Part shown: positions 6,914 through 61,989 of the stretch, piece by piece
Numbering within the stretch: the first letter of the stretch is position 1
Layout of the letters: the number at the start of each line of letters is the position of its first letter
From: Ignavibacteriales bacterium
GTDB taxonomy: Bacteria > Bacteroidota > Ignavibacteria > UBA10030 > UBA8401
Reading direction: 5' to 3'
DNA: 64,000 bases
NCBI GenBank assembly: GCA_026390635.1
Contig: JAPLFO010000139.1
Coordinates: 34,333-98,332, forward strand
Position numbers and translations under genes: made by a program
The notes under the pieces: generated by a model
The model's input: only the letters and a program-made list of their open reading frames with translations
Databases searched by the model: none
Told to the model about the DNA's origin: nothing

Positions 6914-8803
6914 ATGCCCATAGTTCAATCACCTCAAAATCAATACGATGTAGTCGTCGTCGGCGGTGGCCATGCAGGAATTGAGGCTTGCCTGGCCGCT
7001 TCTCGTATGAAGTGCTCAACACTTCTTGTCACCCTAAGCGCGGCCGGGATTGGCCGCATGTCCTGTAACCCTGCTATCGGCGGTACGGCCAAGGGGCACC
7101 TGGTAAAAGAGATCGATTCTTTGGGTGGGGAAATGGGCAAGATTGCGGATGAATCCGGAATTCACTTTAGAATGCTCAACACATCCAAGGGACCGGCGGT
7201 CTGGTCTCCCAGGAGCCAGAATGATAGGGAATTGTATTCTCGCGCTGCATCCAACCGACTGCTGTCACAGGCTGGATTAGATCTCCTTGAAGACGATCTC
7301 TTGCACATCCATACTGAAGGCGAATTTGTTGTTGGAGTAAGCACCCGGGGTGGTCACAGCGTTTTCTGCGCAGCGCTTGTGATATGCACCGGGACGTTTC
7401 TCAATGGATTGATGCATACCGGACAGAAGAGCCGGGAAGGGGGGCGGTTTGGAGAGCGAAGCTCACGTGGCATCTCTGAGAGGCTTGTCGATCTTGGCTT
7501 TGTTGCGGGCCGATTAAAAACAGGAACTCCTCCTCGCATCGATTTGGACAGCATTGATCTTTCTCGCGTTGAAGTTCAACCCAGTGACGACCCACCAAAT
7601 CCGTTTTCACACACAACGAGGCAAATAAAAAATCAGTTGGTCCCAATGTACCTTACGTACACGAACACCGAAACCCACGCGATTCTTCGAAAGGGGTTTG
7701 ATCGGTCGCCGCTTTTCACTGGAAGAATAAAGGGGGTGGGGCCACGGTACTGTCCATCAATCGAAGACAAGGTGAACCGCTTCGCAGACAGAGATCGCCA
7801 TCACATTTTCCTTGAACCGGAAGGGTACAATACAAATGTTGTCTATGTCAACGGATTCTCAACTAGTCTTCCCGAAGAAATTCAGTTTGAAGCTTTGCGT
7901 TCGATTGCAGGTCTTGAACGTGTCGAAATGATCAGGCCTGGCTATGCCGTGGAATATGATTTCTTCCCTCCTCATCAATTGAATCATACTCTCGAGACAA
8001 AATTAGTTCACGGGCTCTTTTTTGCCGGTCAGATCAACGGGACATCTGGATATGAAGAGGCCGCTGGGCAGGGCTTGATGGCGGGAATAAATGCGGCACT
8101 TGCGGTCCAGGATCGTCCGCCATTGATACTTCGCAGGGACCAGGCCTATATCGCCGTCATGATCGACGATCTTATTAACAAGTCCACTGATGAGCCATAC
8201 AGAATGTTCACCTCGCGGGCCGAACACCGGCTTCTTCTGCGACAGGACAATTCCGATCGTCGACTTATGTCCATCGGGTATTCACTCGGTCTCATCTCTG
8301 AAGAATCGCACGCTTATCTTGACAGGAAAGAACGCCTCATAGAAAAGGGGATCTCCTTTCTTCTCTCCTCCTCCGTTGCCCCGACAGCAATTAATCCAAC
8401 ATTGGCAATGAAGGAAGAACGGTTGATCGTGGAGAACGAAAAGCTTTCTCAGCTACTAAAGCGATCGAATATTTCGATTGGAGACCTTGTCCCGGTATTG
8501 CCTCCGGTGGATCAAGAAACTGGAAACGCATTTTCCAACATAGAGATTTCCAGACAAATCGAGATCGATCTCAAATACGAAGGATACATCGCAAGAGAAT
8601 TGCAACAGATTTCTCGGGCGATTCGATTTGAGGAGATGGAGATACCCGAAACATTTGATTTCGCTGATATTAAATCTCTCAGTACCGAGGGAAGGGAGCG
8701 ACTTAAAAAAATTCGTCCGCGTTCGATCGGACAGGCTATGCGAATCTCCGGAGTGACGAGTTCCGACATATCTGTCCTTACAATCCATCTTCGCAAACAA
8801 TAG
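6914..8803 (+). CDS. mnmG: tRNA uridine-5-carboxymethylaminomethyl synthesis enzyme MnmG (GidA)
   Basis: FAD-binding N-terminus YDVVVVGGGHAGIEA. The ORF opens at 6869 but the MPIVQ start at 6914 fits the family. Directly follows mnmE. Confidence 0.9.
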   Translation: MPIVQSPQNQYDVVVVGGGHAGIEACLAASRMKCSTLLVTLSAAGIGRMSCNPAIGGTAKGHLVKEIDSLGGEMGKIADESGIHFRMLNTSKGPAVWSPRSQNDRELYSRAASNRLLSQAGLDLLEDDLLHIHTEGEFVVGVSTRGGHSVFCAALVICTGTFLNGLMHTGQKSREGGRFGERSSRGISERLVDLGFVAGRLKTGTPPRIDLDSIDLSRVEVQPSDDPPNPFSHTTRQIKNQLVPMYLTYTNTETHAILRKGFDRSPLFTGRIKGVGPRYCPSIEDKVNRFADRDRHHIFLEPEGYNTNVVYVNGFSTSLPEEIQFEALRSIAGLERVEMIRPGYAVEYDFFPPHQLNHTLETKLVHGLFFAGQINGTSGYEEAAGQGLMAGINAALAVQDRPPLILRRDQAYIAVMIDDLINKSTDEPYRMFTSRAEHRLLLRQDNSDRRLMSIGYSLGLISEESHAYLDRKERLIEKGISFLLSSSVAPTAINPTLAMKEERLIVENEKLSQLLKRSNISIGDLVPVLPPVDQETGNAFSNIEISRQIEIDLKYEGYIARELQQISRAIRFEEMEIPETFDFADIKSLSTEGRERLKKIRPRSIGQAMRISGVTSSDISVLTIHLRKQ

Positions 8804-21411: not shown

Positions 21412-22776
21412 TCAGTTCCTAATGACGGGATAGGTTTCCAGTTCAGCCAGTGCTCGATCAATCTCTTCTGTCGGCAATTCGTAATCTTCCAGCTTGCCGT
21501 CGAGATATGCATCGTACGACGTCATGTCAAAATGCCCGTGGCCGCTGAGGTTGAAAAGTATTGTTTTCTTCGTGCCTTCGATCTTTGCTTTCTTCGCCTC
21601 TTCAATTGCAGCTTTGATTGCGTGCGCCGATTCCGGCGCAGGGATCAATCCTTCTGTGCGCGCAAACAACAGTGCGGCTTCAAAGACCTCCAGCTGCCTG
21701 TATGCCTGCGCCTCAATCAATCCGTCCAGATACACGCGACTGACAAGTGGAGACATGCCGTGATACCGCAATCCGCCCGCATGTATGGCGGGCGGCATGA
21801 ACGCGTGGCCAAGCGTATGCATGGGAAGCAAGGGTGTCATTTTTGCAATATCTCCAAAATCGTACCGAAACTGTCCTTTTGTCAGCGTTGGGCAGGAAGC
21901 CGGCTCGACTGCAATGGCGCGAAGTTTTTTTCCGCCGATCTTATCTTGTAGAAATGGAAACGCAATGCCGCCAAAATTCGATCCGCCGCCGACGCATCCG
22001 ATGATGATGTCGGGATAGCGATCAACTTTTTCCAGCTGCTTTTTCGCTTCCTGGCCGATGATCGTTTGGTGGAGCAGCACATGATTCAACACGCTGCCCA
22101 AGGCATAATTGGTGTCATCGCGCTTCGCGGCATCTTCCACCGCTTCACTGATTGCAATGCCGAGGCTGCCGTTGGAATCTGGAAATTTCGCAAGTACATC
22201 TCTGCCTGCCTGTGTATCCATGCTCGGGCTGGCAACCACTTCGCCGCCCCATACGCGCATCATCGAACGGCGATACGGCTTCTGGTGATAGCTGACTTTT
22301 ACCATATATACCTTGCACTCCAAGCCGAACATTTTACATGCCAGGCTGAGCGAGCTGCCCCACTGACCCGCACCCGTCTCCGTCGCAAGACGCTTTTTGC
22401 CTTCTTTTTTGTTGTAGTATGCCTGGGGAATTGCCGTGTTGGGTTTGTGGCTTCCCGCCGGACTGACGCCCTCGTATTTGAAATATATTTCTGCCGGCGT
22501 ATCAAGCGCCTTTTCGAGATTGAGCGCGCGAATGACCGGTGTGGGACGGTACATTCTGTAGGCGTCCTGAACTTCCTCGGGGATTTCAATATACCGTTCA
22601 TGGCTGACCTCCTGCTTGATCAGCTCCATTGGAAAGATCGCGGCAAGATCCTGCGGTCCGATCGGTTGGCCGGTGCCGGGATGCAGTGGAGGATCAAGCG
22701 GGTGCGGAAGATCGGCCTGAATATTGTAGTACGAGGTGGGCATTTCTTTTTCGAGAAGATGAATTTTTTGCTGCAT
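21412..22776 (-). CDS. trpB: tryptophan synthase beta chain, TrpB2 (long) type
   Basis: 454 aa PLP enzyme with the TrpB2-type N-terminal extension and …[16 protein letters not shown]… (PLP Lys). No trpA is adjacent. Confidence 0.85.
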
Positions 22777-23031
22777 GATGAATCTCCTTTTGAATAGTGT
22801 GAATGGTGATTTTGATTCTATATAACTCGGAAGAACTCAGAGCAAAAACACTTTGTCACAGAGAAAAAGATGAGAGCGCAGAGCCCTTGGGGGCGCCAAG
22901 CGGAGCCGAGGCGAGGCGTCCGGTGTAACCATTCTACCGCTCGCGGTCCTCTCGATTCCGCTCGATGACCGCCCTTTTCTCTGTGCTATCTGTGGCTATC
23001 TTTTGTCACCGAGTATTTTCTGTCTGCTGAG

Positions 23032-23120
23032 CAAAAAAAAATCGCGGGTTCTTTTGCGAACCCACGATTTCTTCCTTTGACGTACAAAAAAAGTGGGAAC
23101 GCTTTTTCCGGCGTTCCCAC
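23032..23120 (-). terminator. two tandem rho-independent terminators downstream of the thioredoxin-like gene
   Basis: On the minus strand: tcgtgggttc-gcaaaa-gaacccgcga followed by T9 (23032-23070), and aagtgggaacgc-loop-gcgttcccactt followed by T7 (23086-23120). Confidence 0.55.
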
Positions 23121-23293
23121 TTGAACTTTCAGCTATAGTTACTCAGTGTGGTTGAGACGCCGGTATTCGCCAACGCCACCACCAATTTTGCGTTCGTATG
23201 ATTGAATTGCTTTTCATGATAATATATCATACAAAAGAAGCGATAAAATGTCAAGCACTCTCTTATGAACTCTTGGTTCTTTTTTGCGGGGCA

Positions 23294-23845
23294 CTATGAG
23301 CGCCACTTGATGGAGCAGCCCATGGAGTGGTACTGTTTTTCCGCAACCGGTTTGCCCGCCGCGAGAGCAAGGACTGCCTCCTTCAATTCCCGCTGTGTGA
23401 CCTTTGATTCATCCTGCCAGTTGTCGTCGATCCGTCCATGATAGACCAGTGTTTGGGCCGGCCCGAAGAGATAAATGTCCGGCGTGCATTGCGCTTTGAA
23501 GGAACGCGCAACCGCCTGTGTTTCGTCTACAAGATAGGGAAAGGGGATTTTCCACTCAGCGATTTTTTTCTTCATCTGCCCGGGCGCATCATCCGGATAT
23601 GCCGGATTAATGTTGGGATTAATGGCAACCGTTTCTATTCCCAGCCTTTTTGCTACTTCGGCAATCCGGATCACTCTGGGCCATACCGCAATTGCGTACG
23701 GACAATGATTGCAGGTGATGACCACCAGCAGGCCTTTGCGCCCAAAGATCCGCCTGCTGTCGTGAGTTTTTTCGAACGGATCGTGAAGAACGAAATGTTC
23801 AATCGGAGTGCCCAATGGAATATCTACTGATTCAAGAAGCGCCAT
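23294..23845 (-). CDS. thioredoxin-fold thiol-disulfide oxidoreductase family protein
   Basis: 183 aa with a CNHCPY CxxC active-site motif in a thioredoxin-like context. Confidence 0.65.
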   Translation of the reverse strand: MALLESVDIPLGTPIEHFVLHDPFEKTHDSRRIFGRKGLLVVITCNHCPYAIAVWPRVIRIAEVAKRLGIETVAINPNINPAYPDDAPGQMKKKIAEWKIPFPYLVDETQAVARSFKAQCTPDIYLFGPAQTLVYHGRIDDNWQDESKVTQRELKEAVLALAAGKPVAEKQYHSMGCSIKWRS

Positions 23846-28671: not shown

Positions 28672-28694
28672 TTACGTTGCTCCACCTCTGAAAA

Positions 28695-28907
28695 TTATTG
28701 TACCGGATCGTAGCCGCCTTTGTGCCACGGATGACATTTGCCGATGCGCCGTACTGTATGCCACAGTCCTTTCACGGCACCGAACTTCTGAAGAGCATCA
28801 ATGGAATATTGGGAACATGTGGGATAAAACCTGCATGTGTTTGCAGGAAGAAGGGGTGATATCAGGGTCTGATAGAGCCTGACCAATGCGATCAACACCA
28901 GCTTCAC
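28695..28907 (-). CDS. yidD: membrane protein insertion efficiency factor YidD
   Basis: 70 aa, …[39 protein letters not shown]…. Confidence 0.85.
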
Positions 28908-28910
28908 GGC

Positions 28911-29336
28911 CTACTCCATCGATGCGAGGATTTTTGCGGCGATCTCATTCCAGTCCTCCTGCAAAGACCGGAGAGATGCCCCGTGTGAAACGGGGCTGCT
29001 GCGTTGTTGATATACCAGAACAATCCGCAGATCTCTGGTATATTCATCTGCGGCGACGCGAAGTATGGTTGCCTTCATCCGATATGCCTCGCGCATCAGT
29101 CGTTTGATTCTATTCCGATCAACTGCGCGCGGCACTCTTTTTTTGGGAACAGCAAAGCCTGTTTTGACTCCCGCGCTCCGGTTATTGCTTTTTGTGTCAG
29201 CGCTTCGTTGAAGCATAACGACGTGGCACAGAAGACAGCCAGAGCGGACGCGTACACCGTTCCGGACGACATCCGCAAAGGCCTTAAAGCCCCGAAGTAT
29301 ATCCGTTTTTTGAAGAGTGTTACGCACACCTGTCAT
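28911..29336 (-). CDS. rnpA: ribonuclease P protein component
   Basis: Basic about 140-aa protein with an RnpA-like RNR motif region (…KKRVPRAVDRNRIKRLMREA…). Lies in the conserved rpmH-rnpA-yidD-yidC context. Confidence 0.8.
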   Translation of the reverse strand: MTGVRNTLQKTDILRGFKAFADVVRNGVRVRSGCLLCHVVMLQRSADTKSNNRSAGVKTGFAVPKKRVPRAVDRNRIKRLMREAYRMKATILRVAADEYTRDLRIVLVYQQRSSPVSHGASLRSLQEDWNEIAAKILASME

Positions 29337-29359
29337 AGGGGATGTTTGATGCCGGGCGG

Positions 29360-29503
29360 CTACTCGTCGCTAACGCTTAGTTTGTGGCGCCCTTTTGCTC
29401 TGCGGCGGGAAAGAACTTTGCGTCCGTTCTTCGTGGACATCCGTTCGCGGAAACCGTGTGTATTCTTGCGCTTCCGATTGTGTGGCTGAAAAGTGCGTTT
29501 CAT
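29360..29503 (-). CDS. rpmH: 50S ribosomal protein L34
   Basis: Not in the ORF track (47 aa). Manual reverse-complement translation gives [47 protein letters not shown]. Confidence 0.9.
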
Positions 29504-29697
29504 CAAAAACTCCTGTGTTTCAAATAAAAAAGGGGTGCCGTCGGCAATCCTTTGCGTATGTCAAATGAAAATAGGAAAAAAAAAGACCATAAACAAGAGG
29601 CGTCGTCTCCCTTTTTTTGCATTTTTGTCTTGACAACCCTTCAATTTTTAATGTATTATTAGTGTTCGAGGTATGGTGTTCTGGAGTGTTGACAAAA

Positions 29698-29930
29698 TGT
29701 TGATAACCTTTCCCCATCCACACCCTGTTTTTGCCCTTGACTTTGTAGCCCGAAATTGAATCTTTTTGGGATGTGAATAACTGGTAAATAAGTCTATCGA
29801 TGTGTTATATGTCAATAAGTTAGCGCGGTTTATCTTATGTTATTAATTTTTTGATCGGTCTAAGTTATTAACTAACGCTTTTCCTCTTTGTTGATAAGTA
29901 TGTTGATAACTTTACGGGAACTGTGAATAA
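29698..29930. promoter_or_regulatory. DnaA-box cluster in the rpmH/dnaA divergent intergenic region (dnaA autoregulation and/or left part of a bipartite oriC)
   Basis: 9-mers matching TTATNCACA, all in the same orientation as read on the minus strand: tgttgataa at 29698, 29889 and 29901; tgtgaataa at 29772 and 29922; ccatccaca at 29715. An AT-rich tract lies at 29760-29880. Three boxes sit within 45 nt of the dnaA ATG. Confidence 0.55.
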
Positions 29931-29933
29931 CCT

Positions 29934-45349: not shown

Positions 45350-46232
45350 AAGGATCGCCATGATTGTACGTGTACTGCAAACAGGATGGAGGCACGCCGT
45401 CGCACAATGGAGGATGGCGGCGCTTCTCTATGCGGTGAATCTCTCGGCCGCACTTCTTCCGGCGCTCGCGTTTCGCTCATCGGCTTCGTCGCTGGGAACA
45501 TTTCCCGCAGTGCAGGACCTGCTGTCCGTCTTTCGTTTTTCCACATTCATTGATGTTTTGCGTGTCTATGGAAGAGAAGTGACGGGAGTTCTGCCGGTAC
45601 TGCCATGGCTGGTGCTTCTGTTCATTGTGATCAATACATTTCTTGCCGGAGGAATTGTCGCCTCATTTTGCGGAATGGAGATGGAGTTTTCCGGCAAGGG
45701 ATTCTTCTCCTCATGCGCAGAGTACTTCTTCCGGTTTCTTCGCCTGTTGCTGTTATGGGGAGTGTGTGTCGTCATCGTGTCGGGGCTCTCTCTGGGAATC
45801 ATGGCTGTGGCATGGAGCTGGATCACAGACAACGCTCAGACAGAAACAGCCGGATTGACGGTTCTGGCGGTTGCCGGATTCGTGTTTCTTCTTATTGCAA
45901 CGTGGATGGTCGCAATTGCAGACTATGCACGGATTATTGTTGTTGCCAACGATGAGCGGCGCGTGTTTCGCGCATTCGTGGGCGGCGCCAAATTTGTTGC
46001 CGGGAATCTCTTTCGCACACTTCTCGTGCTCCTTGTGCCGCTGCTGATATTTGTCATCGCTCTTGTCATCTACTTTGTCAAGGAAGATTGGCTGGGAATG
46101 ACGTCGGCGGGAACCGTGTTCCTTGTTTTTGTATTGCAGCAGGCGTTGACGATGGTCAGACACTGGCTGCACATTTTTGCGTATGCATCGGAGACAACAC
46201 TGTATATGGACCAGGTGCCGATGATTGTGTAA
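45342..46232 (+). CDS. hypothetical polytopic membrane protein
   Basis: 296 aa with several hydrophobic segments. It overlaps the M1 peptidase gene by 8 nt, so the two are probably co-transcribed. Confidence 0.5.
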   Translation: MRERIAMIVRVLQTGWRHAVAQWRMAALLYAVNLSAALLPALAFRSSASSLGTFPAVQDLLSVFRFSTFIDVLRVYGREVTGVLPVLPWLVLLFIVINTFLAGGIVASFCGMEMEFSGKGFFSSCAEYFFRFLRLLLLWGVCVVIVSGLSLGIMAVAWSWITDNAQTETAGLTVLAVAGFVFLLIATWMVAIADYARIIVVANDERRVFRAFVGGAKFVAGNLFRTLLVLLVPLLIFVIALVIYFVKEDWLGMTSAGTVFLVFVLQQALTMVRHWLHIFAYASETTLYMDQVPMIV

Positions 46233-46270
46233 GATGATGGCCCGGTCTGCATTATGAAAATTTCCCCGGT

Positions 46271-48511
46271 TCAACGAAGCAGGATAAGTTTCTTTGTTGA
46301 CACGAAATTGTCTGCCGCGAGTCTGCAAAAGTAAACACCGCTCGCACAGCGGGATGCATTCCACCTCACCGAATATTTTCCCGCAGGTTTTTTCTCATCC
46401 ACCAGCACCGCCACTTCGCGACCGAGGAGATCGAATACTTTCACCATAATACATGATTGCCGAGGGATGTTGTATTCGATAGTTGTGCTTGGATTAAAAG
46501 GGTTTGGATAATTCTGGCACAAAGAAAATTCCTTGGGGAATCGTTCGGCGGCTACCGGAACGGGAGTAGCAATTGAATTCCTGTATGATATTTCGCGCGA
46601 CGTTCCGATGGACTTATCGGTGAATCGAATACTATAATAGAACGAAAGATTCCAGTTCACCGGAGGTGTTTTCAAGATACATGCCCATATGGTGTCATTT
46701 GCCGCACCGTCACCATGCAGTCCGTCGTTGAAGAACTGGGCGCTGTCTGCAACGACATCGCTTGTGGTGAATAATTTGCCGGTGAGAGCAAGATTATGAT
46801 TGAGAGGATTCCGAACGGTTACACTCAGAACGATGGTATCTCTCTGGCGGTAATTCATCTTGTCGGTGACAGGGGAAGATGCGTATGCCACTGCATTGAT
46901 CCATTCGACCGCCTGCTTCACCACGTCATCCTCGCCGCATACAGCGCCTTCCTGTGTCAGCCATACATCTTTGTCTACAGGAAAGCTTTTATGAATCAAA
47001 TATCCTTCATTATTATATGTGGTGAATATTGATCCATTATCAACCCGGTAGTAGTATGAACCAGCCCATCGTTTATCTCCGGTAAAATATGCAGTGTAAG
47101 CTCCATTCGTCCGCTTCCCAAAAAAACGAGCCATAGGATGAAACCGCATTCGAAACGCGTTATAGTCTCCTGAACTTCCGCAGTTTGGTCCGACAAGAAC
47201 CGCGATCGGCCGGTCAAAAATGAACGTGCCGGGAGTAAAATTCTCTGCTGCCCTTGGAGTAGTGATGGTAAACTCATTGTGCGCGCCGCCGGATATCCTC
47301 TTTGCCTGTGAATAATTCTTTGTCGGATCAAAATTGAATATCTGCTTGAATCCATCGTTGGCATATTCCGTGAGACCGCCTGCATTAGTTCGAAAATCCA
47401 GAACGAGGCCGGATAACCCAGGCGTCTGAAGCAGATCGGTCATTGCCTGACCAAAAAGGATTCTTGTTTGATTTGTAGATGCAGGAACACCCATCCAGTC
47501 CCATGCATAGATATATCCAATTTTAGTACCTTCAACAATTCCCGATGAGACGAATTTCTTCGCTGCAAAATTAGGGAACGGAACTCCTTTAACGGGAAGC
47601 TGTTCCGTCGCAACAAAATATGGAGGCGTGATACTTTTTAAGAGGGATGTTGGCAGATGGACGGTGTCTTTCGTCCAATACCTGAATATGTCGATGGTGT
47701 CAAAAAGCCCCCAGTTCATTCCCACGCTCATGGTTGAAACATGAAAGGCGACGTATGGTGTCGATCCAAGAAGACAAGCACCATAGCTGATCGGCAATTC
47801 GGCATCGAGAATCTCCTTCACGAGATCCTTCCAGGGAATTCCATCATACCCAAGAACGATGTCTCCTGGATGCAGACCGAGAGGATGATTAGGCATAACG
47901 CTGTACACCAGCGCAGTACTGTCAGGGAGAGCCGTCACACCGGCGCCAAAACAAGTCTGGAAAAAGCATGGATTCACACTGAAAATCGGTATGCCCGGTT
48001 TGTACACGTAGGAGGTGAATGGATATTCGGTGACAGTATAGTATTTAAACGTGCTGTCGATCCCAGTGTCGAGAGCATATGAATGCCATTCATTAAGCGC
48101 CCTGGACATGCGGGTCAGAATTCCATAAAAACGGCCGCGGCTCACGCCTGCTGCAACTTGCGGACGATAAACACTTTTCAAGGAATCCCAATTGACAGTA
48201 GTATTTGGAAATCCGCCCCAGGTTTGATCGAAAAGTGTCCAATAGAAGTCGAAGAAATTGAGCTTTTCCGCAGCGGAGATTCCCGAACCCCACGCTGAAT
48301 CAATGAGATTCCTCCAGTCTTTTACCGTGTAATGACCCAGCCGCTTCATCGCTGCAGGATTCTGGAATTGCCATGCAGTCTGTGCGGATGATGCAGCGGA
48401 ATTCGCCGCACCCCGTGATTGGAACAACTCACCAGAAACTTGTTGTTCTGTTTGACCAACGAGAGTGTGGCAAACAATCAAGACCGGAAGAAGCCAACAG
48501 GTCTGTTTCAT
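46271..48511 (-). CDS. T9SS-sorted S41-like serine peptidase (PDZ + C-terminal Por secretion domain)
   Basis: 746 aa with a signal peptide, a PDZ-like GLHPGDIVLGYDGIPWKDL, an S41-like IAVLVGPNCGSSGDYNAF, and a C-terminal …FNPSTTIEYNIPRQSCIMVKVFDLLGREVAVLVDEKKPAGKYSVRWNASRCASGVYFCRL… (T9SS CTD). Confidence 0.65.
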   Translation of the reverse strand: MKQTCWLLPVLIVCHTLVGQTEQQVSGELFQSRGAANSAASSAQTAWQFQNPAAMKRLGHYTVKDWRNLIDSAWGSGISAAEKLNFFDFYWTLFDQTWGGFPNTTVNWDSLKSVYRPQVAAGVSRGRFYGILTRMSRALNEWHSYALDTGIDSTFKYYTVTEYPFTSYVYKPGIPIFSVNPCFFQTCFGAGVTALPDSTALVYSVMPNHPLGLHPGDIVLGYDGIPWKDLVKEILDAELPISYGACLLGSTPYVAFHVSTMSVGMNWGLFDTIDIFRYWTKDTVHLPTSLLKSITPPYFVATEQLPVKGVPFPNFAAKKFVSSGIVEGTKIGYIYAWDWMGVPASTNQTRILFGQAMTDLLQTPGLSGLVLDFRTNAGGLTEYANDGFKQIFNFDPTKNYSQAKRISGGAHNEFTITTPRAAENFTPGTFIFDRPIAVLVGPNCGSSGDYNAFRMRFHPMARFFGKRTNGAYTAYFTGDKRWAGSYYYRVDNGSIFTTYNNEGYLIHKSFPVDKDVWLTQEGAVCGEDDVVKQAVEWINAVAYASSPVTDKMNYRQRDTIVLSVTVRNPLNHNLALTGKLFTTSDVVADSAQFFNDGLHGDGAANDTIWACILKTPPVNWNLSFYYSIRFTDKSIGTSREISYRNSIATPVPVAAERFPKEFSLCQNYPNPFNPSTTIEYNIPRQSCIMVKVFDLLGREVAVLVDEKKPAGKYSVRWNASRCASGVYFCRLAADNFVSTKKLILLR

Positions 48512-48556
48512 GCAACCTCCGAAAAATATATTAGTGGAAAAAAGACGGTCTTCGCC

Positions 48557-51121
48557 CTATTTCACCACCATACACTTTTTCGTTTCCGAAAATAATCTTT
48601 CCCCTCCCGCCGCGTCTAATCTGTAAAAGTAGATACCGCTGGATATTGCTGACGCGTCCCATGTCACCGAATATTTCCCCGCTGGTTTTTCCTCATTGAC
48701 CAACACCGCTACCTCGCGACCGAGGAGATCGAAAACCTGCAATCTAATAATTGCTGAATTTGGAATTGAAAATGCGATCGATGTTGACGGGTTAAATGGA
48801 TTAGGATGGTTCTGGTGCAGGAAATATTGTGCCGGCAGATTATTTTCTTGCACCACACTGTTCGTCGACGGTTGGACCAGCAACGAGACTGTGTCAATCC
48901 ACGCCGGATACTCTTCCGTCATGATATTCATCAGGAGTTGCACCCTAATATTGGGCGGACAGACAGGTTGGATTTTCAGTGCCCGGGGAACTTCTGCCAG
49001 TGCCTCTTTACCCGGAAGCAGATTGCCATAAATAAGCTGGTCCGTACCGCTGGTGATTGATACCATAGTATCCAACACAGCTATCGTTGCGGTCACATTT
49101 CTAACAGTATCTGTCTTTCCATTATTGATGAGTCGGAATTTAACACGAATCACGTCTCCCGGATTTGGAATTGTATCAGTCGATGTGTACGTCCACCCCT
49201 TCAAGTTCACCGGTCCATTGGTGAAGAACCGTTGTGCATTTTGAAGATGACGGTATGTTCCGGCCGTGATATCTGTAGTCCGCAGCGAAACTCCGTATGT
49301 ACTTTCTTTGGTTGGCGGTCCGATTCTTCCTCCATACACCTTATCGCCCGCGACCCCATCGTTGTGTAGACCATCATCAAGCAATTGGCAGCTGTCCACG
49401 AGTGCTCCTGCTCGATCAGAGAGATAGGACCAGACAGACACCGCATGCTTTTGCGGATTCTCGACCGTCGTCGTTACCCTGATCGTGTCTTGCGCTGGCT
49501 TCCCAAATTGTTTTGCGAGCGTCACGTCATGGCCATGCGTGAGCCCCGCAATCCACTCAAGGGCACGCTTGACTATCGTATCGTCTCCTTTCGCCACATC
49601 ATCCTTTGCAAACCACACTCTCTCATCGACGTCAAATCCTTTGTGAACCAGGTGTCCCTCGCCCGGATAGTTCGAGTAGGCTCCTTCTTTCGATACCCCA
49701 TAGTACCAAAGATTGTTTAGATAGTAGCCCTCCATGGAAGATAGGCCGTACGCGGTTGACGTCGGCTTTCCAAAGAACCGAACCATCGGATGACTTCTCA
49801 TAAAGAATGCTCCCCAATCACCGATACTCCCGCATTCAGGGCCAGTCAATACTGCGATCGGTCGATCGTAGAACTTCTGCTTCGGCGGCACACTGTAGCT
49901 CAAACGAGCGACCTTAAAGTCCATCTTGTCCGACGTGCTCGTTCTGGTCGCATCTGATAGCCACACCCACGGATCACTGTTAAACAGTCCACCAAGTTCC
50001 GACAGGAGTTTGGTGGAACCCCCTCCATTCACTCGAAAATCAATGATGAGACCATCGACTTTCTTGACATTTGTAAGTTCGTTGACGGCGGCGCTCACCA
50101 GCGAGGTGGTTGAGTACCAGTCCCGGATGTAGACATAACCCACATTCGTTCCTTCGACAATACCCCTCGTGCATTGCGGGCCTTGGTAGCGTTCGACGAT
50201 CGGAACGCCTTTCACAGGAAGCTGTTCAGCATAGCCAAAACTGTCCCAGTCTGTATTGTCCAACTTCCAGGTGGGAAGATGCACGGTATCACTGGTGGAA
50301 TACCTGATGACATCGAGAGAATCGAAGAGATACCAGTTGCACGCTGCTGATGTCAGAAGGTTGTGCGTCCAGCTTTCGGGCGAAGCGCCCCACATTGATA
50401 GTCCCCAATTGAGGGAAGCTACAGGAAGTTGAGCATCCAGGAGCTGCCGTATGAGTTGCTTCCAGGGAACGCGATCGTAACCAAGGACGATATCGCCCGC
50501 TTTCAGTCCCAACGGCTGGTGAGGGTCCACCTGGATCACAAGCAACGAACTGTCAGGCAGAGGGGTCATTGTCGCTCCCATGCCCCAGGCACACCAGCCG
50601 GAAATCCCGAGAATCGGCACTCCGCGCGGTCGATGGCTTGAGCCACGAAAACTCACGCTGTCAATACCCTGATCGATAATCAGCGTGTGCCCGTCGCGCA
50701 AAGCGAGAACCATATTCGACAAGATTCCGGCGAAACGGCCACGACTGACGCCTTGAGCTACTTCGGGGCGGAAAACGTTTTTCAGCGAGTCCCAGTTTAC
50801 ATCGAGGTTCGGGAAACCTCCGTAGTACATATTGACGTTGTTCCAGAAGCCGTCGAAGATCTGAAGCTTTTGGTCGGTTGGTAGTCCGGGGCCCCAAGTG
50901 GAATCGATGAGCCTCCGCCAATCATCCTTCGAATACTGCGACGCCTTCTTGCCAGAGATTCTGTATCGCGGGAAACTTTCCGATTGTGGTTGTGGCGGGG
51001 ACAAAGATAGCCTGACACGCCTGTGAGTAATATCGGGTGGTATTTCCTGTGCGCTTGCCGATAGCTCCATCAGCAAATAGAGCGCCCCGGCGCAAAGCAA
51101 GAATCCGAGTGCTGTTTTCAT
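48557..51121 (-). CDS. T9SS-sorted S41-like serine peptidase, tandem paralog of the upstream gene
   Basis: 854 aa. Long blocks match the neighbour (…NWDSLKNVFRPEVAQGVSRGRFAGIL…, IAVLTGPECGSIGDWGAF) and a T9SS CTD is present (…FNPSTSIAFSIPNSAIIRLQVFDLLGREVAVLVNEEKPAGKYSVTWDASAISSGIYFYRL…). Confidence 0.65.
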   Translation of the reverse strand: MKTALGFLLCAGALYLLMELSASAQEIPPDITHRRVRLSLSPPQPQSESFPRYRISGKKASQYSKDDWRRLIDSTWGPGLPTDQKLQIFDGFWNNVNMYYGGFPNLDVNWDSLKNVFRPEVAQGVSRGRFAGILSNMVLALRDGHTLIIDQGIDSVSFRGSSHRPRGVPILGISGWCAWGMGATMTPLPDSSLLVIQVDPHQPLGLKAGDIVLGYDRVPWKQLIRQLLDAQLPVASLNWGLSMWGASPESWTHNLLTSAACNWYLFDSLDVIRYSTSDTVHLPTWKLDNTDWDSFGYAEQLPVKGVPIVERYQGPQCTRGIVEGTNVGYVYIRDWYSTTSLVSAAVNELTNVKKVDGLIIDFRVNGGGSTKLLSELGGLFNSDPWVWLSDATRTSTSDKMDFKVARLSYSVPPKQKFYDRPIAVLTGPECGSIGDWGAFFMRSHPMVRFFGKPTSTAYGLSSMEGYYLNNLWYYGVSKEGAYSNYPGEGHLVHKGFDVDERVWFAKDDVAKGDDTIVKRALEWIAGLTHGHDVTLAKQFGKPAQDTIRVTTTVENPQKHAVSVWSYLSDRAGALVDSCQLLDDGLHNDGVAGDKVYGGRIGPPTKESTYGVSLRTTDITAGTYRHLQNAQRFFTNGPVNLKGWTYTSTDTIPNPGDVIRVKFRLINNGKTDTVRNVTATIAVLDTMVSITSGTDQLIYGNLLPGKEALAEVPRALKIQPVCPPNIRVQLLMNIMTEEYPAWIDTVSLLVQPSTNSVVQENNLPAQYFLHQNHPNPFNPSTSIAFSIPNSAIIRLQVFDLLGREVAVLVNEEKPAGKYSVTWDASAISSGIYFYRLDAAGGERLFSETKKCMVVK

Positions 51122-51749
51122 GCTAATCCTTCTTCTGATTGAACAGATCGGTCACTAGCTAAGTGATACTAAATAACAGTCGCGGACCGCTAGGCCATGA
51201 ACGTACCTCGAAGTGGCAGTTGGCGCGCAGCGAACGAGCTGACTCATGTCGACAATCCGCTTTCCGACCATGGATCACCATGATTAAAAGATATCCGACG
51301 GCACAAAAATAATAAAGCCCCCGCCGGCTTATCGCCAACAGAGGCTTCTAGGTATTAACGGTAGTGTTGCCAGCGCTTAGGAGTCCTCCGGTGAGGACAG
51401 CTGGGTCAATGTGTGTGTGCAAATCTATGGGAATTCGAGACAACTTTCAACCCCCGAGGCTTTCGCAGCACACAGTGTGAAGAATCACTCGCATTGGAGT
51501 AAGTCCTGAAAAACAGGCCATTTACTCCTTGATTTGCATACCGAAACAATGTCTAAGCAATTGTGGATATTTTCTCCTCACAAAACAACAATATCAGAGC
51601 GCCGTCCCCTAACGAGATATGGACGAAAATCTAGCTTTCGTATCAATCACATTAAGCTCACAATTGTCCAAAATAACTATCGCCGGACCTTCGAAAAATA
51701 TGGAAGCAAAACAAGGCGAACGAAGCGGCCGCACGGCCCCTCGACGCGG

Positions 51750-51846
51750 CATCGCTTCGCGATACCTTGCTCGGGGTGACGCAACACGTCATGGTGAGCG
51801 AGGGAGCCCCGTTGCACGGGGTAAACTCCGCGACCGAGTCGAACCA
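51750..51846. repeat. intergenic structured element, copy A, related to the element at 54257-54330
   Basis: …atcgcttcgcgataccttgctcggggtgacgcaacacgtcatggtgagcgagggagccccgttgcacggggtaaactccgcgaccgagtcgaacc…. Shares tcgcttcgc…tgacgcaa…gtca…catggtgagc…cggg…tcgaac blocks with copy B, and the hairpins differ by compensating changes. Confidence 0.4.
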
Positions 51847-52087
51847 TGCAGCAAAGTGAGCCGTCGTTTTGCCCATATTTTTCGTCAGTCTTGAATCTGG
51901 GTCATTTCGGTTTCAAGACAAAAGAAACGACGCTTCTGCATACTTTTAGAGAAAACAACAATAGACCCATGCTCAAATAGTAAGGCTAACTCTTATGACT
52001 CGCAAAGAATTCGTCATCTATGCGCAGGAGGCCCGTATTCCTTTCTTCCCAGATTATTCTGGACAGCAGTGCATTAAGTCCCTAAAC

Positions 52088-52150
52088 AAAAAAACAGCCG
52101 CAATGTCCCAGAGAGTGAATGAAGGATCTCTGTTGTCACTGCGGCTGTTT
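52088..52150 (-). terminator. candidate terminator hairpin downstream of the OPT transporter gene
   Basis: aacagccgca (52092-52101) pairs with tgcggctgtt (52140-52149) around a 38-nt loop holding an inner cagaga/tctctg hairpin. On the minus strand the stem is followed by TTTTTTGTTT. The atypically large loop lowers confidence. Confidence 0.35.
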
Positions 52151-52177
52151 ATATAACAGCTGATCAATCTTCGAACG

Positions 52178-54181
52178 TTATTCTTCCTTTGCGCGCATCG
52201 TATCCCACAACGTATACGCCGCGAGCAGAATGAACATCACAATAGCAACGAATTCACCCTGATGAGATTCTGCGAGTTCCGCATTGTACCAGGACGTATA
52301 TCCGAAGCGATATAACTGATCGTCGAAGAATCTCATAAATGCATTCAAAACACCGAACAATGCTCCGCCCGCGATAAAGCCGGACGCGATCAATGTACCG
52401 CGCGAGAAGCGTGCGTTGTTCAGCTTTTCATTTGTCGAACGGCTTGTGGCCCACCACGCAATTAATCCGCCGGCGACGAGCGGGAAATTTAATTCCTGCG
52501 GAATGTACATGCCGAGAGCAAATGCAAGCGGGGGAATCTTCACCGCAACGAGAATCAACGCGATCACCGCGCCGACAAGATAGAGAATCCAGGGAGCGCC
52601 CGTATTCGACATCAGCGGCTTGATAACGGCAGCCATGGCGTTGGCCTGCGGCGCGACCATCGCACCCTCGCCCTTGAATCCGAACGACTTATTGAGAATA
52701 AGAATCACAGCGGCAACTGTGGCGGCGGAGACGATCGTGCCGAGGAACTTCCATGCTTCCTGCTTCTTCGGCGTCGTGCCGAGCCAGTAGCCGATTTTCA
52801 GATCGGTGATAAATCCGCCGGCCATCGAAAGCGCCGTGCAGACAACGCCGCCGATGATCAGGGCGCTCATCATGCCGCTGTCACCGGTCAATCCGATTTG
52901 GGTAAGGATAAACGAAGAGAGAATCAACGTCATCAGCGTCATGCCGGACACGGGATTCGTTCCGACAATTGCCGTGGCATTGGCGGCCACGGTGGTGAAG
53001 AGAAAAGCGACAACAAGAACAATCAGCAAGCCGACAACGGCATGTGTGAAGTTGAAAACTACTCCGGCGTAAAAGAAGATGAAAATCATAAGCGCGGTCA
53101 GAAGAATCAGCAGGACGATATGCAGCATCTTCAAATCAGTCTGCCAGCGCACCTCAGATGAAGAGTCAGCGCTTTTTGACCGGAATATTTCGTGGTAGGC
53201 AAGACTGAATGCACCCGCAATAATTTTCGAAGAGCGCAGAATACCAATAATACCAGCCATTGCGATGCCGCCGATACCGATCTGCCGCACATACGCACGG
53301 AAAATTTCTTCTGCAGTCATAGCATTGATCAATTTCGTTGCCGTCGCGCCAAAGGGAGCCGTCAATCCAGCGCCAAGATTTGCCACCAGCGGCACAAGAA
53401 CAAACCAGGACAACGCGGAACCGGCGGCAATGATAACGGCGTACTTGACGCCGATGATGTAGCCAAGTCCGAAAATCATGGCGGAGACGTCGAAACGGAA
53501 TACCATTTTAACTTTCGTTGCGAGCAGATCGCCGAGCGGCACAACGCGTGATGTCACCACTTCCGACCACCATCCGAAAGCGCTGAAGACAAAATCAAAC
53601 AAGCCGCCGATGAGTCCGCTGACGACAAGCACGCCCGCCTGCTTGCCACCTTTTTCTCCGGCAATGAGAATTTCCGTCGTGGCCGTTGCTTCGGGGAATG
53701 GGAATTTGCCGTGCATGTCCTTCACAAAGAATTTTCTAAACGGAATCATGAAAAGAATTCCGAGAAAACCTCCGAACAGGGAAGACAGAAACATCTGATA
53801 GTATGTCGCAGGCAGATCGAGAATGTAGAGAGCGGGGATGGTGAAAATTGCGCCGGCGACAACAACACCGGAGCTCGCACCAATGGATTGAATAATGATG
53901 TTTTGCCCTAGGGCATTCGGACGTTTGAAGAGCGTTGAGAGACCGACGGCAAGAATGGCAATCGGAATGGCCGCCTCAAAGACCTGTCCGATCTTCAGTC
54001 CGGAATAGGCCGCCGCGGCAGAAAATAGGACTGCCATAACCAATCCCCAGCCGACAGACCACGGCGTCACTTCGGCAATCTGTGCCGTGGGATTCATGAC
54101 CGGCGTGTAGCTTTCTCCCTCCTTCAATTCTCTATAGGCATTGTCCGGGAGGCTGCTGTTGCCCGCGTTTTTTTGTTCCAT
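52178..54181 (-). CDS. OPT-family oligopeptide transporter
   Basis: 667 aa, about 16 TM segments, collinear with TIGR00733-type OPT transporters. Confidence 0.85.
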   Translation of the reverse strand: MEQKNAGNSSLPDNAYRELKEGESYTPVMNPTAQIAEVTPWSVGWGLVMAVLFSAAAAYSGLKIGQVFEAAIPIAILAVGLSTLFKRPNALGQNIIIQSIGASSGVVVAGAIFTIPALYILDLPATYYQMFLSSLFGGFLGILFMIPFRKFFVKDMHGKFPFPEATATTEILIAGEKGGKQAGVLVVSGLIGGLFDFVFSAFGWWSEVVTSRVVPLGDLLATKVKMVFRFDVSAMIFGLGYIIGVKYAVIIAAGSALSWFVLVPLVANLGAGLTAPFGATATKLINAMTAEEIFRAYVRQIGIGGIAMAGIIGILRSSKIIAGAFSLAYHEIFRSKSADSSSEVRWQTDLKMLHIVLLILLTALMIFIFFYAGVVFNFTHAVVGLLIVLVVAFLFTTVAANATAIVGTNPVSGMTLMTLILSSFILTQIGLTGDSGMMSALIIGGVVCTALSMAGGFITDLKIGYWLGTTPKKQEAWKFLGTIVSAATVAAVILILNKSFGFKGEGAMVAPQANAMAAVIKPLMSNTGAPWILYLVGAVIALILVAVKIPPLAFALGMYIPQELNFPLVAGGLIAWWATSRSTNEKLNNARFSRGTLIASGFIAGGALFGVLNAFMRFFDDQLYRFGYTSWYNAELAESHQGEFVAIVMFILLAAYTLWDTMRAKEE

Positions 54182-54256
54182 GCAAAGGGTTCCTTTTTAG
54201 TTGTGTAACAACTACCTGCGAGTTAAAACGACAAAGCTTTGCCACAGGGTCCCCCG

Positions 54257-54330
54257 ACTCGCTTCGCTCGCTTGGGATGACGCAAGAGTCACACTCCATG
54301 GTGAGCCAGCCCAACGGGACGATTCGAACT
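54257..54330. repeat. intergenic structured element, copy B, related to the element at 51750-51846
   Basis: …gactcgcttcgctcgcttgggatgacgcaagagtcacactccatggtgagccagcccaacgggacgattcgaact…. Same orientation as copy A. Lies 75-150 nt upstream of the OPT start, on the opposite strand. Confidence 0.4.
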
Positions 54331-54413
54331 AAGCTCTGTGAGCTCTGTGTTCTTCCGAATGATGCCTGCGGCATCATTCGAGATCCTCTGGACTGTGGCC
54401 ATTTTTCTCTTCA

Positions 54414-61336: not shown

Positions 61337-61437
61337 CACTCCACGAGTGCAGCGGTCATTCGTTAAACCTCCCTTCCAGCTTCTTGTCAAATGTCAGTGA
61401 AGCAGCACGACTGAGTAGACAAAAAGAAGAGAGCCGT

Positions 61438-61788
61438 ATGAAGAAGAAAGTGTTTGCAATCGCAGCGTGCCTGTTGCTGTTGTGCACAACATCAGCAATG
61501 GCGCAAATCCATATCGGCGTTGGAATTCGCGTCGGACCGCCGCCGCCGGTGCGAGAGGTTATCGTCGATGGTCCATTTCGAAACGCAGTATGGATTCCGG
61601 GATTCTATCGATGGCATATGCATCGCCATGAGTACGCATGGGTGCCGGGACATTGGGCGCGAGCATCGCGGCCGGGTGCTGTTTGGATTCCGGAACGATG
61701 GGAACGGCGGCGAGGGGAGTGGGTATGTTTTGAAGGACGCTGGAAAGAGGAACGCCCTGCCGGGCGCGAACGACGTCGTGGTAATTAG
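61438..61788 (+). CDS. small secreted Trp/Pro/Gly-repeat protein
   Basis: Starts MKKKVFAIAACLLLLCTTSAMA (signal peptide). This is followed by repeats of W-[IV]-PG-x-[WY] spaced about 12 aa apart, and an Arg/Glu-rich tail. Confidence 0.45.
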   Translation: MKKKVFAIAACLLLLCTTSAMAQIHIGVGIRVGPPPPVREVIVDGPFRNAVWIPGFYRWHMHRHEYAWVPGHWARASRPGAVWIPERWERRRGEWVCFEGRWKEERPAGRERRRGN

Positions 61789-61819
61789 AATTCGCGACAT
61801 CTGAAAAACTCTTGGCGCC

Positions 61820-61923
61820 GTCATTCTGAGTCGTCCGCCTACGGCGGGATAAACTTCGCGACGAAGAATCCATCACTTTGGTCTAATTTTAGCGCATGGA
61901 TTCTTCGCTTCGCTCAGAATGAC
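61820..61923. repeat. 104-nt near-perfect inverted repeat (long hairpin) between convergent genes
   Basis: Outer arms gtcattctgag/ctcagaatgac (11/11) and inner arms cgaagaatccat/atggattcttcg (12/12), with a side hairpin ccgcc-tac-ggcgg and a loop ttttagcgc. Confidence 0.5.
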
Positions 61924-61989
61924 CCACCGACAAGACTTTTTCAGAAGTGTCAATTCATTCGATTCGCGGAAACGCGGAGGGCATCTTTA

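Follow-up and report, generated by a model that had tools for sequence, protein, structure and literature searches.

Small non-autonomous, MITE-like palindromes, among them the REP/BIME, ERIC, BOX/RUP and Correia-type repeats, occur in the intergenic regions of bacteria, and REP-type elements can stabilise mRNAs, terminate transcription or serve as insulators. Amino-acid and peptide utilisation operons, in turn, can carry 5′ leaders with terminator/antiterminator structures. A third point of comparison is the class of structured 200-700 nt intergenic RNAs to which 6S RNA and the Rfam families OLE, GOLLD, HEARO, ROOL and raiA, large RNAs whose function is unknown, belong.

The spacer described here lies in a 64,000-nt stretch, hereafter the window, of a 160 kb contig from an Ignavibacteriales metagenome-assembled genome, and resembles each of these systems in part. 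Like the palindromic repeats, it contains a 100-200 nt imperfect palindrome that can fold into a long stem-loop, and like REP-type elements this sequence is strictly intergenic, is oriented as the surrounding operon and varies in presence between related genomes, one copy lying between cistrons (DUF6487-OPT) and the other downstream of a terminator. Like Rho-independent terminators and attenuators, a hairpin near the peptidase gene combines a GC-containing 15-bp stem with a U-run and has a promoter-like site on one side and the start codon on the other; as in leader attenuators, it appears from one orthologue to be conserved with the gene and not with the upstream neighbour, and its substitutions keep the RNA pairing. 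Finally, the central part of the spacer has the size, the intergenic position and a predicted multi-stem fold closed by a long stem that recall OLE and its counterparts. The components belong to known kinds (terminators, a leader, an intergenic palindromic repeat), with no match at the level of a family. We propose that the spacer, rather than forming one RNA gene, is a composite patchwork that lies in a lineage-specific insertion, and that its peptidase-proximal hairpin serves as an attenuator or insulator, a reading to which we assign a probability of roughly one half.

A long non-coding spacer within a lineage-specific block

The spacer (51122-52177, 1056 nt) extends from the start codon of an S41 peptidase gene to the stop codon of an OPT oligopeptide transporter gene, in the following setting:

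48557-51121, minus strand: S41 peptidase ORF, 854 aa, with a T9SS sorting tail
52178-54181, minus strand: OPT oligopeptide transporter ORF, 667 aa
46233-52177, minus strand: lineage-specific block of two S41/T9SS peptidase genes and the 1 kb spacer, absent from the related contig L087

The neighbouring genes form a peptide-utilisation set (an M1 peptidase, two S41/T9SS peptidases, OPT, DUF6487, the tripeptidase PepT and an amino-acid permease), and the coherence of this neighbourhood makes separately regulated units plausible. A preliminary description of the locus had called the spacer unusually long and devoid of coding character, and both statements hold. Its 1056 nt compare with a median spacer of 54 nt and make it the longest or second-longest gap in the window; the sole longer gap (28672-29933) contains an unassigned 161-aa ORF. 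Across 51122-52177 the in-frame hexamer score was below 0 in all six frames, whereas the genes of the window had a mean score of +0.30 and a minimum of +0.08. Ten spacer ORFs gave no Pfam match at E<=1 and, by exact look-up among 15 billion proteins, have never been called as genes; likewise, 25 stop-free segments of at least 30 aa from the six frames retrieved nothing at E<=10 from 5.8 billion protein clusters.

Among syntenic relatives the closest is L087, a contig from a peat metagenome whose OPT shares 90% amino acid identity with that of the window. Position 7004 of L087 corresponds to window position 52178 and position 7279 to window position 46220, with nothing aligned between them; since L087 is syntenic on both sides yet lacks 46233-52177, the block is lineage-specific. 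The nearest peptidase orthologues are found in other gene contexts, in L170 (78% aa identity, upstream gene PEPCK) and L171 (73%), and upstream of more distant S41 orthologues stand genes for a Y_Y_Y histidine kinase and a LuxR-type regulator.

That the block is an indel difference relative to L087, that this kinase and regulator stand before the more distant orthologues, and that short-read assemblies consistently fail to bridge 51362-51897 would all suit a spacer left by a decayed protein gene or transposable element, for example a lost regulator like the sensor kinase and LuxR pair. We nevertheless consider such an origin very improbable. By tblastx, the means suggested in the preliminary description for detecting a degraded gene, the spacer was not recognisable as a remnant: among 172 loci and the rest of the window the best match had E = 0.019 and ran across a stop codon. 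Moreover, the six-frame segments had no counterpart in the protein clusters, Pfam was negative, a search of plasmids and phages in distant mode gave no match, and the boundaries at 51362 and 51897 carry no terminal inverted repeats. Blastn, nhmmer and tblastx searches of the spacer against 80 and then 172 loci detected no homologue beyond L170, and there in the proximal part only. A search of IMG/VR with the inverted-repeat arm pattern of the spacer also returned no homologue, and no tandem repeats were found in the spacer.

A predicted intrinsic terminator behind the OPT gene

The OPT-proximal end of the spacer is occupied by a terminator, here called T1:

52150-52083 (stem 52150-52092), minus strand: T1, intrinsic terminator of the OPT gene, formed by inverted repeat I2 (14 nt, 93% complementary)

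T1 begins 28 nt past the OPT stop codon and comprises the stem AAACAGCCGCAGTG / CATTGCGGCTGTTT, an inner stem CAGAGA/TCTCTG and the T-run TTTTTTTGTTT (T7). The surrounding sequence (52040-52159) folds with z = -3.7 on the minus strand and -4.3 on the plus strand, with a T-run after the stem on the minus strand only. A terminator is also present at the same place after OPT in L087, where it is non-homologous. Alternative, mutually exclusive stems had been described at 52092-52162, and overlapping stems do exist there, a weak rival hairpin at 52144-52160 overlapping the 5′ arm of T1, but the structure is simply the OPT terminator. Both T1 and a second hairpin nearer the peptidase gene, T2, join a GC-containing stem-loop to a U-run on the transcribed strand, as intrinsic terminators do. 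The two are the strongest local fold signals, both with T-runs on the minus strand, and termination is predicted at each of them.

A putative control module upstream of the peptidase gene

The peptidase-proximal part of the spacer contains the following features:

51450-51422, minus strand: sigma-70-like promoter candidate TTGAAA-17-TAGATT, which aligns with TTGACA-17-GAACTT in L170
51383-51398, minus strand: 6-bp hairpin GTCCTC-ACCG-GAGGAC in the putative leader
51348-51305 (stem-loop 51348-51314), minus strand: T2, terminator-like hairpin of 15 pairs (8 G-C) with the loop GATAA, followed by ATTATTTTTG
51272-51294, minus strand: conserved block TATCTTTTAATCATGGTGA, whose L170 counterpart overlaps a promoter-like ATGACA-16-CATGAT just downstream of the hairpin
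51262-51134, minus strand: ~130 nt without counterpart in the L170 leader, preceding the ribosome-binding site

Upstream of the L170 orthologue, conservation is restricted to window positions ~51262-51455, and since only this segment aligns, the module appears to have moved with the peptidase gene. Conservation of the proximal leader was not seen in L171 (73%) or L172 (56%), and the distal sequence (~51456-52082) is absent upstream of the peptidase in L170, L171 and L172. The long regulated 5′ leader of the preliminary description may hold for the peptidase-proximal third, with its promoter-like site and strand-specific hairpin shared with L170. It cannot be extended to the distal two thirds, which contain most of the hairpins listed in that description and which, being absent upstream of the two closest orthologues, are not a conserved leader. 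Each promoter was assigned from a consensus match at 9 of 12 positions, and shuffled sequences contain promoter-like sites at least as often as the region does. Two other promoter types were considered and discarded, as the spacer contains neither a Bacteroidetes-type promoter (TTTG...TAnnTTTG) nor a -24/-12 match to a sigma-54 promoter with upstream activator sites.

T2 is the best terminator-like site in 20 kb, and its region folds with z = -3.6 on the minus strand versus +0.5 on the plus strand. Relative to the window, the L170 hairpin has four one-sided substitutions, all in the 3′ arm, which change G-U to G-C or A-U pairs or the reverse and leave 15/15 pairs intact. The five G-U pairs of the window T2 make the stem viable only on the minus (peptidase-sense) strand. 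Both-sided compensatory changes are lacking in T2 in the one orthologue compared (L170). The preliminary description had proposed to look for conservation and covarying stems; conservation was seen for 51262-51455, and the distal part is absent. Within the spacer, T2 nonetheless appears to make the strongest case for a functional RNA feature, as judged from this single sequence comparison.

We infer that T2 may act as an attenuator or insulator before the S41 operon, or may form the 3′ end of a small RNA of ~110 nt. Unlike known attenuators, it has no identified antiterminator, leader peptide or ligand-binding aptamer and no match to an Rfam riboswitch or T-box, and its U-run is weak in the L170 orthologue (AACATTTTAT). 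Folds of the leader showed no competitor upstream of the 5′ arm of T2 that could represent an alternative antiterminator or a ligand- or protein-binding domain. The only segment complementary to this arm, 51204-51225, is downstream of the terminator, within 51262-51134, and is an inverted partial copy of the T2 5′ arm region (51333-51354).

The ~110-nt spacing between the promoter-like site and the strong terminator, both of which are kept in L170, is what would be expected if ~51415-51305 were a separate small RNA gene, genetically linked to the peptidase gene and equipped with a promoter and terminator of its own; the L170 promoter-like site right after the hairpin could then serve the peptidase. 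We regard such a gene as doubtful. A single orthologue is available for comparison, the sequence from promoter to hairpin is poorly conserved, the structures predicted for the window and L170 differ, and Rfam contains no match.

Orphan DNA and a 193-nt palindrome in the distal spacer

Between T1 and the promoter candidate, ~52082-51456 (~630 nt) is orphan DNA with no homologue in the collections searched. Its features, which include the hairpins of the preliminary description, are:

51692-51884, minus strand: palindromic element of 193 nt, inverted repeat I5, with the perfect 12-bp closing stem CGAAAAATATGG / CCATATTTTTCG
51582-51593 and 51952-51963: perfect 12-nt direct repeat AAAACAACAATA, bracketing the palindromic element
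51719-51726: NotI-like palindrome GCGGCCGC
~51752-51764: hairpin ATCGC-TTC-GCGAT
~51780-51794: hairpin TGACG-CAACA-CGTCA
51807-51821: hairpin CCCCG-TTGCA-CGGGG
51888-51919 (stem; extended arms 51880-51927): perfect 8-bp hairpin GTCTTGAA-N16-TTCAAGAC, the arms reaching 16 nt at 81% complementarity

Every hairpin and palindrome that had been listed was found in the sequence and in its place. The GTCTTGAA/TTCAAGAC hairpin is nested in CGTCGTTT/AAACGACG (51862-51869 / 51925-51932) and is followed by no T-run on either strand. The closing stem of the palindrome extends imperfectly to ~26 pairs and encloses a GC-rich, multi-hairpin core of 169 nt; a perfect 12-nt inverted repeat arises in 6/300 shuffles. 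The copies of the direct repeat sit ~100 and 68 nt from the ends of the palindrome, and a perfect 12-nt direct repeat arises in 10/300 shuffles. A motif shared with a palindrome at 61.7 kb had first suggested kinship between that element and the spacer, a connection that was dropped because the similarity is insignificant (z = 1.9). For a widespread 25-mer of the 61.7 kb element, no occurrence was found in the literature.

The perfect 12-bp inverted repeats (51692-51703 / 51873-51884) flanking 169 nt, together with the break of short-read contigs nearby at 51898, raise the idea of an inverton in which these repeats flip the core. We judge this extremely improbable, as no recombinase is encoded among the genes within ~10 kb, the contig ends at 51361 and 51898 miss the inner repeat edges, the sequences at the break points are not reverse complements and the core is without a promoter-like site.

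The description of the spacer as hairpin-dense applies to the shortest stems. There are 20 perfect stems of at least 5 bp, moderately above the 11.2 ± 3.3 of dinucleotide shuffles (2/200 reach 20), and 2 of 59 other 1056-nt chunks of the window have at least 20 such stems; longer stems (minimum 6, 7 or 8 bp) are not significantly enriched. Folding energy is the stronger signal. On the minus strand 51685-51935 folds to -110 kcal/mol (z = -6.27), and its plus-strand fold has -101 kcal/mol (z = -4.40). A scan of the entire window in 250-nt segments placed this stretch second among 510, with an absolute energy lower than anywhere else. For the 791 nt of 51300-52090, the minus strand (z = -5.2) folds lower than the plus strand (z = -4.5) by 36 kcal/mol.

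A core repeat with a second copy upstream of OPT

Part of the palindrome recurs outside the spacer:

51711-51814, minus strand: core repeat copy 1, homologous to 54221-54319 in the same orientation
54221-54319, minus strand: core repeat copy 2, in the DUF6487-OPT spacer outside 51122-52177, just upstream of OPT and ~2.5 kb from copy 1

The copies are ~70% alike, and their local alignment score of 29 compares with 12.3 ± 1.6 in shuffles (maximum 18.5; 0/500 reach 29). With z = 11.9 this pair is the only significant match among 10 intergenic gaps on both strands. The nhmmer E-values of 1e-26 and 4e-25 obtained for the copies reflect self-matching, as the model was derived from the two sequences themselves. 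The same profile and the covariance model R1, applied to the 64-kb window, to 26 related loci and to 9.5 kb beyond the start of the window, found no further copies, and a protein search with the ORF covering the 54 kb copy, which would reveal copies mis-called as genes, was negative. Because only two copies were found in the DNA searched, a dispersed repeat is not established, and local duplication or a shared regulatory element fits the two-copy repeat equally well. Both copies fall within sequence that varies between related genomes, as L087 lacks ~155 nt that include copy 2 as well as 46233-52177 with copy 1.

These properties set the element apart from REP-type repeats in several respects. 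Only two copies are seen here, ~70% alike, as opposed to dozens of near-identical ones; there is no target-site duplication at 51692-51884, where the flanks (...GGACCTT and TCAGTCT...) differ; the sequence has no similarity to any described family; and the palindromic, terminal-inverted-repeat architecture with its 12-bp closing stem is confined to the 51.7 kb copy. The consensus structure common to both core copies is weak (-17.7 kcal/mol) and the local hairpins differ, with one long hairpin shared by both, in which two pairs are compensatory (G-C to A-U, C-G to U-A).

This long hairpin, and the placement of both copies in sense orientation, 5′ to transcription units with linked functions, could indicate a shared cis-regulatory element upstream of OPT (54204-54407) and the S41 operon (51665-51914), that is, an RNA leader or a protein-binding module co-regulating peptide uptake and secreted peptidases. 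However, ~545 nt separate the S41-side copy from the start codon, with the conserved promoter-like site and T2 between them, the element is absent from the L087 OPT locus (90% aa identity) and from the S41 orthologues in L170 and L171, and two sequences provide almost no statistical power. We hold shared control of this kind to be improbable.

Is the strong fold a structured RNA?

A functional structured RNA would likewise be expected to fold as strongly as 51685-51935 does (z = -6.3). The spacer might accordingly hold a novel structured ncRNA on the minus strand, either a domain of ~200-250 nt at 51685-51935 or a transcript of ~700 nt running from below T1 to T2, acting in trans or as a very long leader. 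The minus strand folds more stably than the plus strand by 9 kcal/mol for the domain and by the 36 kcal/mol given above for the 791-nt region, the domain takes second place in the window scan, two minus-strand terminators bracket the candidate region and the spacer has no coding signal. We nevertheless think this unlikely. Rfam gave no family match even at E<=10; neither the sequences upstream of the two nearest peptidase orthologues nor 170 related loci contain a homologue; the core copies share only the weak consensus and form different local hairpins; the best promoter candidate downstream of T1, with 8 of 12 positions, is unconvincing; and palindromic DNA yields low z values on both strands without being an RNA gene.

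The family searches covered more than the spacer. On both strands, as had been proposed, Rfam 15 at the gathering score over the whole window returned no family, and at E<=10 over 50900-52400 it returned two chance matches of 15 bits, against thresholds of 72 (a microRNA) and 37 (a snoRNA). Two other structured gaps of the window gave nothing at E<=10, ARAGORN detected no tRNA or tmRNA, and we found no report of intergenic non-coding RNAs of Ignavibacteria in the literature. Unlike OLE, GOLLD, HEARO, ROOL, raiA and 6S RNA, the central region has no covariance-model match at E<=10, and its core is related to a neighbouring repeat copy. The suggestion of one or more structured ncRNAs is not supported, as no Rfam family matches and the structured core copies a local repeat and is not a unique RNA gene. 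Hardly probable, in our estimation, is the broader proposal that 51665-51914 and 54204-54407 are an undescribed structured sense-strand RNA module coupling OPT and S41 expression (as a leader, a riboregulator or a processing or stability element), or that 51685-51935 is part of a large new ncRNA reaching from T1 to T2.

Short-read contig ends around the spacer

Logan short-read contigs identical to the window end at the same positions in the examples examined (6 on the peptidase side, 3 on the OPT side and 3 on the pepT side), and the OPT contig alone recurs in 13 samples. On the peptidase side the contigs stop at 51361, the 2475-nt OPT contig ends at 51898 and 54372/54375, and the pepT-side contigs stop at 54370. 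The contigs meeting at 54370/54372 share only 3 nt, with a perfect 11-bp hairpin containing GGC at the centre of the overlap. Hairpins and GGC motifs can trigger Illumina errors (PMC3141275), and the 54370/54372 break possibly reflects either such errors or an allelic insertion with a 3-bp duplication. For the gap at 51362-51897, a strain-variable or repeated segment is likewise an option. An inverton or transposable element was rejected as the source of the breaks, since the break points are not mutual inverted repeats and the contig ends carry no foreign sequence.

Discussion

In the patchwork that we favour, OPT transcripts would stop at the intrinsic terminator at 52150-52083. The next ~630 nt would be orphan DNA centred on the 193-nt REP- or MITE-like palindrome, presumably selfish or neutral; if transcribed, this palindrome would supply only a stable stem-loop that insulates transcription or protects an mRNA end. 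The S41 operon would bring its own control module, which would have travelled with the gene and consists of the candidate promoter at 51450-51422, a leader of ~100 nt and the 15-bp hairpin at 51348-51314. This hairpin may attenuate transcription into the peptidase genes or may block upstream read-through, with a second start site probably just downstream of it, and ~130 nt of lineage-specific 5′ sequence would then precede the ribosome-binding site.

If this reading is true, the locus is mostly ordinary, a long spacer of a compact genome built from an inserted gene cassette, its control region and a small palindromic repeat. The stable 193-nt element and the failure of short-read assemblies to cross it point to a place that could conceal population variation or a new structured RNA. 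To our knowledge, almost no regulation has been characterised in Ignavibacteriales, and T2, placed before a T9SS-secreted S41 operon, offers a concrete and testable candidate element by which this group might control protein foraging at the level of transcription.

A 5.9 kb peptidase block and its orthologues

Relative to the closest syntenic locus, L087 (7005-7278), positions 46233-52177 of the window form an inserted block of 5.9 kb, which comprises two S41/T9SS peptidase genes, arranged in tandem with a gap of only 45 nt, together with the non-coding spacer at 51122-52177. By comparison with L087, the site of the block lies between the convergent OPT transporter gene and a gene for a 296-aa protein. 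Directly 5' of the more distant S41 orthologues (~56% identity) lie genes for a sensor kinase (Y_Y_Y/HisKA_3) and for a response regulator of the LuxR type:

L172, 3255-6965: kinase-regulator pair ahead of the S41 orthologue
contig carrying P0005: the same arrangement

This kinase-regulator pair is absent from the window and from the loci of the 78% and 73% orthologues (L170 and L171). At ~880-960 of L171, a long hairpin that leads into a T-rich run lies ~85 nt 5' of the start codon of the 73% orthologue; it was recognised by eye only, having been passed over by the simple scan (loop >8 nt), and its sequence is not homologous to that of T2, the terminator-like hairpin in the putative leader of the window's S41 peptidase genes.

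Small features of the peptidase-OPT spacer and structured spacers elsewhere

Besides its palindromic element, the spacer at 51122-52177 contains these small features:

51582-51593 and 51952-51963: perfect 12-nt direct repeat AAAACAACAATA, copies 370 nt apart on either side of the palindromic element
51995-52156, plus strand: 53-aa ORF starting at ATG, 10 nt downstream of an AAGG motif, convergent to OPT

A direct repeat of 12 nt was reached in 10 of 300 shuffles, and the sequences adjoining the two copies pair with each other in the minus-strand fold. The 53-aa ORF, whose end falls within the OPT terminator hairpin, is probably spurious because its coding score is ~0, no homologue was found and gene calling never picked it up.

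Only one spacer in the window is longer, at 1262 nt (28672-29933). It includes a 161-aa ORF (29004-29489) of low coding score with no match in Pfam, and a strong minus-strand fold at 28935-29184 (z = -4.5). The top fold signal of the entire window (22935-23184, z = -7.7) lies within 22780-23300 on the minus strand, where a long GC-rich stem comes after two perfect terminator-like hairpins that stand in tandem and carry T-runs; these structures occupy the 517-nt gap between an ORF at 21412-22776 and an AhpC/TSA-family gene. The gap at 61337-61989 yielded z = -5.7 (61685-61934, 250-nt scan window) and holds a further element:

61790-61955, minus strand: palindromic element of ~165 nt

No match to this element was found in Rfam, nor any paper in the literature with its 25-mer GGTCATTCTGAGCGAAGCGAAGAATCC, which L052, L112 (three copies) and L113, all of them distant loci from Bacteroidales, carry at 100% identity.

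The second repeat copy and shared contig ends

L087 also lacks ~155 nt of the DUF6487-OPT spacer (within 54204-54407, minus strand), an inter-cistron position in a likely pepT-DUF6487-OPT operon. Copy 2 of the repeat core, at 54221-54319, falls in the missing segment, as does a hairpin:

54356-54380, minus strand: CGAATGATGCC-TGC-GGCATCATTCG, a perfect stem of 11 bp and a loop of 3 nt

All the Logan short-read assembly contigs examined that are identical to the window (12 loci) share end points at 51361, 51898 and 54370-54375. The OPT-bearing contig recurs in 13 samples, and OPT lies on an isolated contig of 2475 nt every time. Between the contigs joining at 54370/54372 the overlap is 3 nt (GGC), not k-1. 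The shared ends may reflect a strain insertion or deletion, a repeat, or a sequencing error at a hairpin or GGC motif.
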